4,894 nucleotides of DNA, from the IMG/VR virus record IMGVR_UViG_2713896791_000019. One strand, written 5' to 3'. Below the pieces are notes generated by a model. That model made no database searches and was not told where the DNA came from. It saw only the letters and a program-made list of their open reading frames with translations. Position numbers and translations under genes: made by a program. Positions within the stretch are counted from its first letter, which is position 1, and the number at the start of each line of letters is the position of its first letter. This stretch comes from a virus (taxonomy: Duplodnaviria > Heunggongvirae > Uroviricota > Caudoviricetes). This document shows positions 573 through 4,779 of this stretch, piece by piece.

Positions 573-914
573 CCAAACGTCACCAGAAAATTGATAACAG
601 AGGGCGTTGCAGCGGGGTTGTCACTTAAGCGTATTGTCAACCTGACAACCCGGTGTCCTCAACGGGGAAGGAATAACCCCGCCATACTTACCGCCGCGCC
701 ATTTCGCGGAGTGCCACAACCGGAAGCGCACGTTCGAAGAAATCTAACGACAAGCCTTCTAAGGGAAAGAGCTTCGCCGTACGCTTTCGCGTTATGCCCT
801 GACTTTTCAGGGAAATATCCTTTCAGTAAACTGTCAGTACCGGATTCTTATCCGTGTCCGGCGCACGACCACACGTGACAGCGTGTTGGTCTCCATTTTT
901 AACCCAGAACCTCA
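573..914. other. GC-rich non-coding stretch dense in inverted repeats (possible structured RNA or regulatory leader)
   Basis: No convincing ORF on either strand; the only ORF (489..878 +) is Pro/Arg-rich and junk-like. Inverted repeats: GGGTTGTCA 615-623 with TGACAACCC 643-651; TTGTCA 634-639 with TGACAA 643-648; CGGGG 663-667 with CCCCG 677-681; CCGCG 694-698 with CGCGG 705-709; CCCTGA 797-802 with TCAGGG 807-812; GACCACACG 867-875 with CGTGTTGGTC 882-891. Confidence 0.35.
867..900 (+). terminator. candidate intrinsic-terminator-like hairpin with downstream T-run
   Basis: 9-bp GC-rich stem with one bulged U (867-875 / 882-891), 6-nt loop, then TCCA and TTTTT (896-900). The U-tract is 4 nt from the stem, so it is weak by the canonical rule. 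Confidence 0.25.
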
Positions 915-2973: not shown

Positions 2974-3216
2974 ATGAAAAAATCAGAAGTATTAGGCTAT
3001 TTTGGCGGAGTTGTTAAAACAGCCGCAGCTCTAGGAACGTCAAAAACCACAGTCAGCATGTGGGGGGAAGAGGTTCCGTGGAAATGGGCGTTGCTAATTC
3101 AGGCAGTCACTGCCGGGGCGCTCAAATATGAGTTACACATACCGACGGTTGTCATTCCCGGTTCTGATCATAATCCGCCTTCTAACCAAGGGGGGATTCA
3201 TGAAAATCAAGCATGA
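2974..3216 (+). CDS. ydaS: Cro-like HTH regulator of the YdaS family, 80 aa
   Basis: GGAG 6 nt upstream of ATG 2974; the ORF opens at a TTG at 2926 but that start lacks an RBS. Product MKKSEVLGYFGGVVKTAAALGTSKTTVSMWGEEVPWKWALLIQAVTAG fits the recalled YdaS/Cro-like HTH pattern. Divergent from the repressor and followed by a ydaT-like gene. Confidence 0.75.
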   Translation: MKKSEVLGYFGGVVKTAAALGTSKTTVSMWGEEVPWKWALLIQAVTAGALKYELHIPTVVIPGSDHNPPSNQGGIHENQA

Positions 3217-3625
3217 ACACATCCGCATGGCGATGAATGCCTGGGCGCGTCCTGATGGCGAAAAAGTTCCGGCAGCTGGAATAACCCAGGCTTATTTTGA
3301 GTTGGGTATGACGTTTCCTGAACTGTATGACGACAGCCATCCGGAAGCCCTGGCTCGCAATACCCAGAAAATTTTCCGCTGGGTAGAGAAAGACACCCCT
3401 GATGCAGTTGAAAAAATTCAGGCGTTGTTACCAGCGATCGAAAAGGCAATGCCACCTTTGCTGGTGGCCAGAATGCGCAGCCACAGTTCAGCTTATTTTC
3501 GGGAGCTGGTGGAGACGCGGGAGCGACTGGTGAGAGACGCTGATGATTTTGTCGCAGTGGCAATCGCCGGTTTCAATCAGATGAACCGTGGTGGCCCGGC
3601 AGGAAATGCTGTGGCAGTACATTGA
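3200..3625 (+). CDS. ydaT: YdaT-like regulatory protein (recalled 'toxin YdaT' family), 141 aa
   Basis: GGGGGG at 3190-3195, then ATG at 3200. N-terminus MKIKHEHI matches what I recall of YdaT-family proteins. Overlaps the Cro-like gene by 17 nt. The longer ORF from 3128 has no RBS. Confidence 0.7.
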   Translation: MKIKHEHIRMAMNAWARPDGEKVPAAGITQAYFELGMTFPELYDDSHPEALARNTQKIFRWVEKDTPDAVEKIQALLPAIEKAMPPLLVARMRSHSSAYFRELVETRERLVRDADDFVAVAIAGFNQMNRGGPAGNAVAVH

Positions 3626-3696: not shown

Positions 3697-4779
3697 ATGG
3701 CTAACGCCTGGCTCAGATTATGGCATGACATGCCAAATGACCCTAAGTGGCGAACAATTGCCAGGGTGTCAGGGCAGCCAATTGCAACAGTGATGGCAGT
3801 GTATATCCACCTCCTGGTGAGCGCGTCACGAAATGTCACGCGAGGTCACATTGATGTCACGACAGAAGATTTGGCAAGTGCGCTCGACGTGACAGAAGAG
3901 GTAATTGATTCAATTTTGCAGACGATGCAGGGGCGGGTACTTGATGGTGATTTAATCACTGGATGGGAAAAACGCCAGGTGCTTAAAGAGGACAACGGCA
4001 ATATTTCGCAAACCGCAAAATCTCCTGCAGAGCGCAAGAGGGCGCAGCGAGAGAGGGAAAGAAAGCGGGAACAAAATGGCGATTGTCACGGCGCGTCACG
4101 AAATGTCACGCACATGTCACGACGAGTCACGACAGATAAAGATACAGATAAAGATACAGATAAAGATACAGATCAAGAAGATCAAAACACTATGGTCCAT
4201 GGCGTAAAAAACGCCACGAACCAGGCAGGGGATGTTCAGACCGTCAATCCTGGTCAGCCAGCAGGCACGACACCGGAAGCCGATTCAGCGTATGCGCTGA
4301 AAGCCGATTCGGGCGCTGTGCAGCAGGTGATGACCGCAGGGTCGGAGCAATCACACCAACTGCAGCAGCCTGAAGCCGATTCCGCCATTCAGCGGGAAGC
4401 CGATCGGGTAGTCCCGGAAAGCACCGGGCAGTCTGTGGGACGAGTGGATTATCCGGATGTGTTCGAACAGGTCTGGCGGGAATACCCGTTGCGTGCTGGG
4501 GCAAACCCGAAGAAATCCGCTTTCAGTGCCTGGAAGGCCAGATTGCGCGAGGGGGTGCCACCAGAGACCATGCTGGATGGTGTGAGGCGTTACGCGAGAT
4601 ACCTGGCGGCGACCGGGAAAGCGGGAACGGAATTTGTTCAGCGAGCGACGACGTTTTTTGGGCCGGACCGGAATTTTGAAAACCCCTGGTTGCTCCCGGT
4701 AAGCGGCACGAACAACCAGCGTTGTGTGAATCATATTTCTGAACCGGATACCGAAATTCCGCCGGGATTCAGGGGGTGA
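3697..4779 (+). CDS. phage replication initiator / replisome organizer (functional analogue of lambda O), 360 aa
   Basis: AAGAGG at 3686-3691, then ATG at 3697 (the ORF opens at GTG 3691). N-terminus ANAWLRLWHDMPNDPKWRTIA fits the recalled replisome-organizer N-terminal pattern (W-x-R/K-L, DPK). It sits between the regulators and a helicase-loader gene and contains iteron-like repeats. Confidence 0.85.
   Translation: MANAWLRLWHDMPNDPKWRTIARVSGQPIATVMAVYIHLLVSASRNVTRGHIDVTTEDLASALDVTEEVIDSILQTMQGRVLDGDLITGWEKRQVLKEDNGNISQTAKSPAERKRAQRERERKREQNGDCHGASRNVTHMSRRVTTDKDTDKDTDKDTDQEDQNTMVHGVKNATNQAGDVQTVNPGQPAGTTPEADSAYALKADSGAVQQVMTAGSEQSHQLQQPEADSAIQREADRVVPESTGQSVGRVDYPDVFEQVWREYPLRAGANPKKSAFSAWKARLREGVPPETMLDGVRRYARYLAATGKAGTEFVQRATTFFGPDRNFENPWLLPVSGTNNQRCVNHISEPDTEIPPGFRG
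3825..3861. repeat. iteron-like array 1: four GTCACG/GTCACA repeats at 10-11 bp spacing
   Basis: GTCACG at 3825, 3835 and 3856, GTCACA at 3845. An inverted copy CGTGAC lies at 3888-3893. GACAGAAGA is repeated at 3861-3869 and 3891-3899. Confidence 0.6.
4085..4131. repeat. iteron-like array 2: five GTCACG repeats at 10-11 bp spacing
   Basis: GTCACG at 4085, 4095, 4105, 4116 and 4126. The 21-bp block GCGCGTCACGAAATGTCACGC at 4091-4111 is identical to 3821-3841. Confidence 0.7.
4132..4173. repeat. 12-bp tandem repeat ACAGATAAAGAT, 3.5 copies, A-rich
   Basis: Exact copies at 4132-4143, 4144-4155 and 4156-4167, with a partial copy to 4173. In frame they encode TDKDTDKDTDKD. Confidence 0.85.

Follow-up and report, generated by a model that had tools for sequence, protein, structure and literature searches.

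The 4,894-nucleotide stretch of viral DNA analysed here (the window; record IMGVR_UViG_2713896791_000019) comes from a lambdoid Escherichia coli prophage and represents its immunity and early region. Its part between positions 573 and 914 is a non-coding leader on the minus strand, placed directly upstream of the small RNA gene dicF in a pL-type (dicBp-type) polycistronic transcript. Almost certainly, this leader of the DicF precursor combines an RNase III hairpin with a genuine structured RNA domain, the latter at 606-720. We think it probable that the region as a whole is best explained as a DicF leader in three parts: the RNase III hairpin, the conserved domain and a hairpin bearing the RNase E site.

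DicF is among the first bacterial small RNAs (sRNAs) to have been described, and its biogenesis has so far been presented only as two cleavages. In E. coli K-12 it is processed from the polycistronic transcript of dicBp: a species of 190 nucleotides (nt) requires RNase III, a 53-nt species requires RNase E, and both accumulate in stationary phase (PMC10448788). The same study looked for an internal promoter and found none, reported a terminated transcript of 1,146 nt next to a read-through transcript of 1,608 nt, and prints the homologous leader sequence, the cleavage site being marked, in its supplement. DicF is a proven trans-acting sRNA: its 5' end pairs with xylR, its 3' end with ftsZ and pykA (PMC5069750).

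The DicF leader in the window

The first 17 nt of DicF (UUUCUGGUGACGUUUGG) are read on the minus strand from the 5' end at 589 down to 573; these coordinates were verified against the annotated dicF of K-12. The rest of the gene falls into a run of 50 N at 523-572. We filled this gap from an unmasked identical locus, that of O103:H2 strain 12009 (L001; window coordinate = L001 coordinate - 1928), where the run represents 201 nt: DicF nucleotides 18-53, the DicF terminator and the spacer to dicB. The completed gap corrects the initial interpretation of the bare letters (the sequence-only reading), which had set the region between divergent small genes: the true left neighbour is dicF, mostly hidden by the N-run. 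In L001, Rfam recovers DicF (RF00039) at full length on the minus strand (2465-2516; 75 bits for a gathering score of 48 bits; E = 1.8e-16). The same search of the window itself returned nothing relevant and no DicF match, because the N-run masks DicF and leaves only nucleotides 1-17 visible.

Gene order and strand were established from the map of open reading frames (ORFs), Pfam matches, the RefSeq annotation of the identical locus and the K-12 annotation. The region lies on the same strand as dicF and directly 5' of it, dicB comes next (507-319, minus strand; Pfam DicB, 1.7e-37), and the operon is situated downstream of the immunity repressor gene. In strand and in position, between the early-left ORFs and dicF-dicB, the region resembles the dicBF locus of Qin in K-12 (Faubladier et al. 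1990; Ragunathan et al. 2023, PMC10448788). The ydfC-dicF spacer of Qin is 91% identical to window positions 573-867, and homology to K-12 stops at 867. Near-identity holds over 573-735 and across the 180 nt nearest dicF, and DicF is the same bar one base. The two loci differ further upstream: Qin has ydfA-B-C, whereas the window has a DUF1391 gene, a phrog_2151 ORF and, in the place of ydfC, a plus-strand ORF of 69 amino acids (aa). The repressor is of the S24 cI type in the window and DicA in Qin.

The identity of the region as the DicF leader is already known, and the locus is very common. It was found in 4318 of 5426 complete E. coli genomes (~80%), with a median of 2 and a maximum of 8 copies in each, and copies of 573-914 that are 100% identical occur in many E. 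coli genomes. The annotation under these copies in the complete genomes is almost always blank: annotation pipelines leave the region empty or call spurious small ORFs in it.

As noticed at the outset, the region is richer in GC than its surroundings (0.52 in 573-914 vs 0.41 on both sides) and holds no credible ORF. The sole minus-strand ORF in its conserved part (36 aa, 731-621) begins with GTG, lacks a Shine-Dalgarno sequence and carries a 1-nt polymorphism in a run of C; it is frameshifted in ~40% of variants and its substitutions are mostly non-synonymous. In view of the frameshifts and the non-synonymous changes we rejected a protein-coding gene at 731-621, despite a match to phrog_8854. 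More generally, it is very unlikely that the region acts as a small protein gene or at the level of DNA, as a set of operator-like repeats. Besides the phrog_8854 match, such a reading can draw on the "hypothetical protein" annotated over the region in some records and on a weak DicC signal upstream of dicF in K-12, obtained by chromatin immunoprecipitation sequencing (PMC11430063). However, the compensatory changes described below keep RNA pairing and not sequence, and the region shows no similarity to the window's own operator region. The weak DicC signal is also all that speaks for the cluster of protein-binding DNA repeats first suggested.

A conserved RNA domain at 606-720

The inverted repeats that had drawn attention to the region are present: a perfect repeat of 9 nt at 615-623/643-651, and others at 634-639/643-648, 612-626/668-682 and 797-802/807-812 (CCCTGA-AAAG-TCAGGG). 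Their number is barely above that of shuffled sequences, as we counted 7 hairpin-capable perfect inverted repeats (stem of at least 6) vs 3.1 +/- 2.3 in dinucleotide shuffles, 8.9% of which reach 7. The fold of the whole region is equally modest, with z-scores of -1.44 for the minus and -2.70 for the plus strand. The structured RNA proposed by the sequence-only reading is borne out for the dicF-proximal half (606-720, minus strand), which is supported by covariation; the region as a whole is the leader of the DicF precursor.

Genome and viral collections yielded about 100 unique dicF loci; of 12 genome matches to the DicF 19-mer, three (L004, L007 and L014) were chance matches in unrelated metagenome-assembled genomes and were dropped. 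Window positions 590-730, the ~140 nt upstream of DicF, are 95-99% conserved, followed by a steep fall. The boundary lies at ~726, 137 nt upstream of the DicF 5' end, which is where the 190-nt species would start. In the 72 loci whose dicB is intact, nucleotide diversity (pi) is 0.021 in these 137 nt, 0.030 in DicF and 0.043, 0.034 and 0.063 at dicB codon positions 1, 2 and 3, respectively; it reaches 0.19 in the apex of the upstream hairpin and 0.31 further upstream. The 137-nt leader is conserved at least as well as DicF.

Within this leader, the stretch at 606-720 is a genuine, covariation-supported RNA domain of ~115 nt. It is closed by helix P0, formed by GUUGUGGC (720-713) and GCUGCAAC (613-606) and paired in 98.7-99.8%. 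Inside it, hairpin Px (695-708) pairs CGCG (708-705) with CGCG (698-695) around the loop AAAUGG (99.5% paired), and hairpin Pa (663-681) pairs CGGGG (681-677) with CCCCG (667-663) around a variable, pyrimidine-rich loop (92.6% paired). The 9-nt repeat noted above becomes stem Pb (615-651), in which GGGUUGUCA (651-643) faces UGACAACCC (623-615; 96% paired). The 19-nt loop of Pb (642-624) is nearly invariant and reads GGUUGACCAUACGCYURAG. In addition, GUAUGG (687-682) may pair with CCAUAC of this loop (636-631), giving a candidate pseudoknot at 631-687 that was left outside the model. All these elements are on the minus strand.

Covariation across homologous loci, the check that had been proposed from sequence, uncovered compensated pairs in this domain. 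Search patterns that excluded the known alleles gave divergent members, for 127 unique cores. A covariance model (R1) was built on the nested helices, and 53 diverse members were re-aligned with it because MAFFT had mis-aligned the 3' side of Pa. R1 matches in all 53 diverse sources searched; it scores 184 bits at the window-identical locus, which is part of the training alignment, and 63-120 bits in members independent of it, namely phages P1 and P7, an Actinobacillus phage, L210, L212 and L337. Standard pairs occupy 97.1% of the cells, vs 33-53% when the partners are slid by 1-3 columns. Changes on both sides affect 10 of the 32 pairs; shuffles give 3.7 +/- 1.2, with 10 attained by 0 of 500, and the slid controls give 1-4. 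The covariation score is 0.120 vs 0.03-0.07 in the slid controls. A naive all-against-all covariation scan was discarded, being swamped by linkage between class-defining transitions.

Helix by helix, compensation affects six of the nine pairs in Pb, with variants GGGUAACCA/UGGUUACCC in L210, GAGCUACCA/UGGUAGCUC in L212 and GUUGCCA/UGGCAAC in P1 and P7. Two of the five pairs of Pa are compensated, one position appearing as G-C, A-U, C-G and U-A. Six of the eight positions of P0 vary, including one truly compensated pair for which the U.G intermediate is observed; Px shows only wobble-compatible changes on one side, which speak for it weakly. In P0, UG was counted in 25 and GU in 28 of 46. Since the many G.U pairs would be A.C mismatches on the plus strand, the structure belongs to the minus-strand RNA. 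The pseudoknot, finally, is paired in 99.1%, where slid controls reach 16-67%, and is equalled by 25 of 500 shuffles: we regard it as suggestive only.

The region had been thought to match no known RNA family by eye, and indeed Rfam 15 gives nothing at E <= 1 over 590-914 or its homologues; the domain itself has no Rfam match in any of the members searched.

Mutually exclusive pairings had also been described here, one segment being able to pair with either of two copies of TTGTCA. The second pairing hangs on base 635 and is available to 1 of 94 unique variants: 80 of the 94 carry TTGACCA, which is unable to form it, in place of TTGACAA, the window allele. At 635 the window has a plus-strand T (A in the RNA) where those 80 variants give C, a change in the Pb loop by which the window also differs from K-12. 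Through this change the candidate pseudoknot loses one pair, and the additional TTGTCA/TGACAA pairing arises. The window allele is widespread, with at least 99% identity in 468 records.

Flanking hairpins and the maturation of DicF

Upstream of the domain, the minus strand is predicted to fold into a long imperfect hairpin, H1 (715-796), with a 5' arm at 796-772, a 3' arm at 739-715 and a variable apex (-28.7 kcal/mol, z -2.46). H1 is a candidate RNase III substrate: counting 137 nt back from 589 would put the 5' end of the 190-nt species at ~726, in its 3' arm. The apex differs between K-12 and the window, and about eight unrelated apex types all fold to the same basal stem of ~22-24 base pairs (bp). 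In a second class of loci (class 2, from phage Ayreon and Stx2c phages) different arms follow the same design, at -43.1 kcal/mol and z -4.45, with 0 of 200 shuffles as stable. The same architecture is kept in L212, whose arms are GCGUAUUCC/GGAAUGCGC vs GCGCACGG/CCGUGCGC in the common type; the 3' arms of both class 2 and L212 finish in GUUGUG(G). H1 is missing where the domain directly follows a promoter, as in P1, P7 and the Actinobacillus phage. Its preservation as a structure, together with its absence next to promoters, fits the job of creating a 5' end near the domain; P1 and P7 would do without it because their 5' end would come from initiation.

Two loci, L008 (2574-2920) and L021 (1559-1905), have undergone a natural deletion between direct repeats of CGCGAAA. 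They lack the 3' arm of H1 and the 5' strand of P0 but retain DicF and the remainder of the domain.

Downstream of the domain, GUUAUCA (598-592) is predicted to pair with UGGUGAC (585-579) around the loop AUUUUC (591-586), in both consensus and single-sequence folds. The 5' end of DicF, created by the cut between 590 and 589, sits inside this loop, and the hairpin (579-598, minus strand) would pair DicF nucleotides 5-11 with the leader. It is invariant, shows no covariation and has the same sequence in K-12.

We now propose a pathway for DicF maturation. Transcription would start at the repressor-controlled promoter (~2100-2240) and run leftward through two ORFs, the spacer, dicF, dicB and a ydfD-like gene. 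RNase III would then cut H1 near 726, giving the 5' end of the ~190-nt species. H1 and P0 would be mutually exclusive, because GUUGUG (720-715) belongs to both the 3' arm of the former and the 5' strand of the latter; the cleavage of H1 would free the GUUGUGGC strand to close the domain via P0. Meanwhile, the hairpin at 598-579 would keep the 5' seed of DicF (nucleotides 5-11) paired until RNase E cuts between 590 and 589. The domain may then serve as a maturation scaffold for the sRNA body that follows, setting a defined 5' end and possibly recruiting Hfq; we advance this role tentatively. It would offer a testable handle on the stationary-phase accumulation of the 190-nt form, and one on the restraint of the toxic early prophage functions DicF, DicB and Kil.

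Two sRNAs are comparable in their processing: like DicF, ManS of Salmonella (PMC11745405) and CJnc190 of Campylobacter (PMC8687705) are cut out of a longer transcript that RNase III enters at a long duplex. No sequence relationship to them was seen, though none was sought. The DicF leader is unlike them in using RNase E and in having a domain of ~115 nt between the RNase III site and the sRNA.

Several observations count against this account of the leader. RNAalifold on 32 E. coli-type sequences found zero compensatory pairs; the set was widened beyond the E. coli type because those sequences are too similar. The covariation consequently comes from divergent and mutually related members, in a model-based alignment biased toward the nested helices. 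P0 relies on a single compensated event, most of its changes being wobble-tolerated transitions, and so does the pseudoknot (GCAUGG/CCAUGC in P1), of which one pair is broken in the window allele (CAAUAC, through base 635). Fold z-scores are weak, both over the entire region and in the 190-nt species (-1.4 to -1.9). As for processing, its course in the window allele is taken over from K-12 by analogy, the RNase III site is placed by counting from 589, and the effect of the domain on either cut is one that we infer. A 2024 preprint (PMC11430063) also refers to a promoter annotated upstream of dicF in a database, at odds with the absence of an internal promoter reported for K-12.

Folds of minimum free energy (MFE) for the 190-nt species contain a long-range pairing between leader and terminator; we rejected it for its weak z-scores and the lack of such complementarity in P7.

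The two published cleavages suggest another fate for the domain: P0 joins both ends of exactly the fragment that they would release. An independent, stable RNA of ~137 nt, acting in trans as an Hfq-bound sponge or a protein-binding RNA, would agree with a conservation at least equal to that of DicF and with the persistence of the domain when the sRNA body 3' of it is swapped. A stretch upstream of dicF that is Hfq-enriched, with DicF itself just under the threshold (PMC4152368), points the same way, and probes directed at DicF would never detect such a species. Nevertheless, we find it improbable that the domain is such an RNA. A discrete species of ~137 nt is not reported in the DicF literature examined, no RNase E-type site is known past the domain in P1, P7 or other classes, the by-products of RNase E are usually degraded, and no candidate target emerged. 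If true, it would mean that a domain RNA with paired ends may accumulate unnoticed.

The domain in other phages and its possible roles

A search of phage collections showed that only the core at ~614-720 is common to phages without a DicF seed. The domain is followed by short 3' ends of at least four kinds: the DicF type, class 2, a third class and several singletons. The putative class 2 RNA (AGCCACUGCUUUGGCGGUACCAG...CUGGUACCGCUCUUUUU) is present in 1392-1599 of the 5426 E. coli genomes, where it is unannotated and has no Rfam match. This suggests that ~1,400-1,600 E. coli genomes bear an unannotated DicF-like sRNA with a different seed. In phage Ayreon (L135, 1118-1215), and also in L136, the class 2 RNA follows the same leader domain and has a different single-stranded 5' part.

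In P1 and P7, a sensitive search located the domain in the C1-controlled leader of the ban operon (76-81% identity, 67-74 bits; nhmmer E = 2.8e-21 for P7). There it is on the transcribed strand, begins ~45 nt after the operator/promoter and is followed by an intrinsic terminator, such that transcription from Pban to the terminator would yield ~190 nt of RNA, the size of the DicF species generated by RNase III. These homologues differ from the dicF leader in having neither DicF seed nor RNase III hairpin, and tRNAs and ban downstream. In the Actinobacillus pleuropneumoniae phage (85% identity; nhmmer E = 1.2e-30) the domain immediately follows a DicA-type repressor gene and precedes kil and exonuclease VIII. 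It is also found in Salmonella phages and about 500 P1-like plasmids. In the Actinobacillus phage (vB_Apl-pPE4; L191, 1626-1720), the segment CGCCACAACAACCCATGTTGATTACC, made of the closing-helix 3' strand and its tail, occurs twice in tandem after the domain, and the profile search picks the second copy (1683-1710).

Tentatively, then, the domain may represent a so far undescribed, widespread family of phage structured RNAs: a portable module, closed by a helix and possibly pseudoknotted, that heads repressor-controlled early operons in lambdoid, P1-like and Pasteurellaceae phages. If so, it would either mature a whole set of prophage sRNAs whose seeds can be exchanged, DicF being the sole known one, or govern read-through of a terminator that guards the downstream early genes. 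We found no description of a domain shared with P1 and P7 and joined to swappable sRNA bodies in the literature covered, from which Faubladier & Bouche 1994 and the P1 genome paper fell out; it is also absent from Rfam. The P1 record NC_005856 has a misc_feature at 68791-68892, "dicF-like region", that comprises only the 3' half of the domain and its tail and assigns it no structure or function. Because that record shows the homology to have been noticed already, and because of the two older papers, we claim real novelty with reserve.

An intrinsic terminator follows the domain in 211 of 212 unique variants, its T-run beginning at a median of 66 nt after P0 (interquartile range 54-69); 15% of random windows from the same loci pass this test. 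The terminator of P7 is an unrelated one (GCCCAUC-UUCG-GGUGGGC-U6), and the genes past it vary with the backbone: DicB, a ~120-aa protein, Kil, Rha/Ash, an excisionase-like protein or tRNAs. The tight spacing invites another reading of the domain, as a cis regulator of the terminator: an attenuator or a put-like antitermination RNA that would set read-through into dicB, kil, rha or tRNAs/ban, DicF being a by-product of terminated transcripts. Across three unrelated backbones, the domain is indeed on the transcribed strand of early operons under repressor control, where it is either promoter-proximal or delimited by RNase III. No match to the N family was found in the window's operon, and K-12 yields both terminated and read-through transcripts (PMC10448788). 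The nearly invariant 19-nt loop and 5' strand suggest a conserved binding partner, and several classes have a GUUG motif a few nt past the 3' strand of P0 that could compete with P0.

Nonetheless, we judge it rather unlikely that terminator control is what the domain does. There is no conserved alternative pairing between domain and terminator, and the MFE version is impossible in P7 (GCCCAUC/GGUGGGC). DicF acts in trans by proof (PMC5069750), so the 3' part is more than an expression platform. The put RNAs of phage HK022 are comparable as structured RNAs upstream of terminators in a lambdoid early operon. They are described as two stem-loops of ~70 nt, whereas the domain has ~115 nt, a closing helix, two hairpins and the candidate pseudoknot, and was seen in a single copy (left operon) in the window. 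We take HK022, like the window's operon, to lack an N antiterminator. The early region of HK022 that holds put (24000-33000) has no sequence similarity to the domain: nhmmer at maximum sensitivity returned no match at E <= 10.

The domain is reminiscent of a riboswitch too, being closed by a helix and followed at a short fixed distance, after a variable linker, by a terminator. It differs in having no ligand and no conserved antiterminator alternative, and the "expression platform" of the DicF class is a trans-acting sRNA. A metabolite riboswitch is disfavoured because the downstream genes are heterogeneous. C4 antisense RNA (RF01695) was considered as well and rejected: in none of the loci searched, P1 and P7 included, does a C4 match fall on the domain, and the P1 homologue is in the ban-operon leader and not in immI upstream of icd/ant, the place of C4. 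One contig with the domain (L210, 2569-2769) also bears Rfam matches to C4 antisense RNA, isrK and c4-a1b1 some 5 kb away; a single phage can therefore carry both the dicF-leader domain and P1-type immI elements.

The antitermination element had originally been deduced from other features: a hairpin resembling lambda boxB and the alternative pairing at 635. Neither is conserved, so that an antitermination- or attenuation-type role remains a rival for the conserved domain and not for those features. The boxB-like hairpin CCCUGA-AAAG-UCAGGG (797-812, minus strand) is present in the sequence directly 5' of H1. It lies, like lambda nut, in a pL-type operon and shares the 9-mer CCCUGAAAA with the boxB of lambda nutR. 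A nut site of the lambda type with this hairpin as boxB is nonetheless hardly credible, as the two differ in stem, loop, conservation, boxA and promoter distance. The hairpin has a stem of 6 bp and a loop of 4 nt, not 5 bp and a GNRA-like pentaloop. Its full stem is found in ~22% of variants and is absent in K-12, whose type has 4 bp; three unique sequences show CUCUGA/UCAGAG. No boxA lies 5' of it, GCUCUUU being placed 3', within the variable apex of H1. The promoter is ~1.4 kb away and not adjoining, and none of the ORFs in the window (on the minus strand DUF1391, phrog_2151, DicB and DUF1482) matches the N family.

The distal spacer (813-914, minus strand) is moderately conserved to ~866 and module-specific beyond, with small hairpins at 861-840 and 891-867. 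It borders the 69-aa ORF on the plus strand (927-1136; phrog_4274, annotated as hypothetical in RefSeq), for which the region had been proposed as an attenuator-like leader. Such a leader or promoter region on the plus strand would be in keeping with the plus-strand z-score of -2.70 and with a plus-strand hairpin at 867-891 followed by TCCATTTTT, just before a strong GGAGGA Shine-Dalgarno sequence. Yet the functional strand is the opposite one, on which alone the G.U pairs are valid, and the covarying domain is more than 200 nt away. The domain is present without this ORF in K-12, P1, Ayreon and the Actinobacillus phage, 867-914 is not common to the other copies, and the sole promoter-like match overlaps the start codon. 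We consider it highly improbable that the region is a leader or promoter for this ORF. The ORF stands antisense inside the leftward early operon, and 867-899 on the plus strand is an odd place for a terminator-like element.

Matches to Rfam STnc100 recur below threshold near the domain. One, of full length, is in the dicF-dicB spacer (L001, 2300-2500; 34.7 bits for a gathering score of 47); similar ones come after the domain and its terminator both in P7 (L190, 2910-3025) and, directly before kil, in the Actinobacillus phage (L191, 1758-1942).

The remaining genes of the window are those of a lambdoid early region. On the minus strand are the S24/HTH repressor gene (2882-2244) and, in the leftward operon, the DUF1391 (ydfA-like) gene, the phrog_2151 ORF (216 aa, 1787-1137) and, left of dicB, a DUF1482/ydfD-like gene. 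A second run of 50 N (1952-2001) lies close to the pL-type promoter, either within the DUF1391 gene or just upstream of it; at the corresponding stretch of L001, an IS3 insertion disrupts the 216-aa ORF. On the plus strand follow a P22-Cro-type gene (2974-3216), a gene with a YdaT domain (YdaT_toxin) in the position of cII (3200-3625) and an O-type replication initiator gene (3697-4779). The latter holds GTCACG-type iterons at ~3830-3870 and 4085-4135, and a tandem repeat of GATACAGATAAA (~4137-4172) that encodes DKDT repeats.

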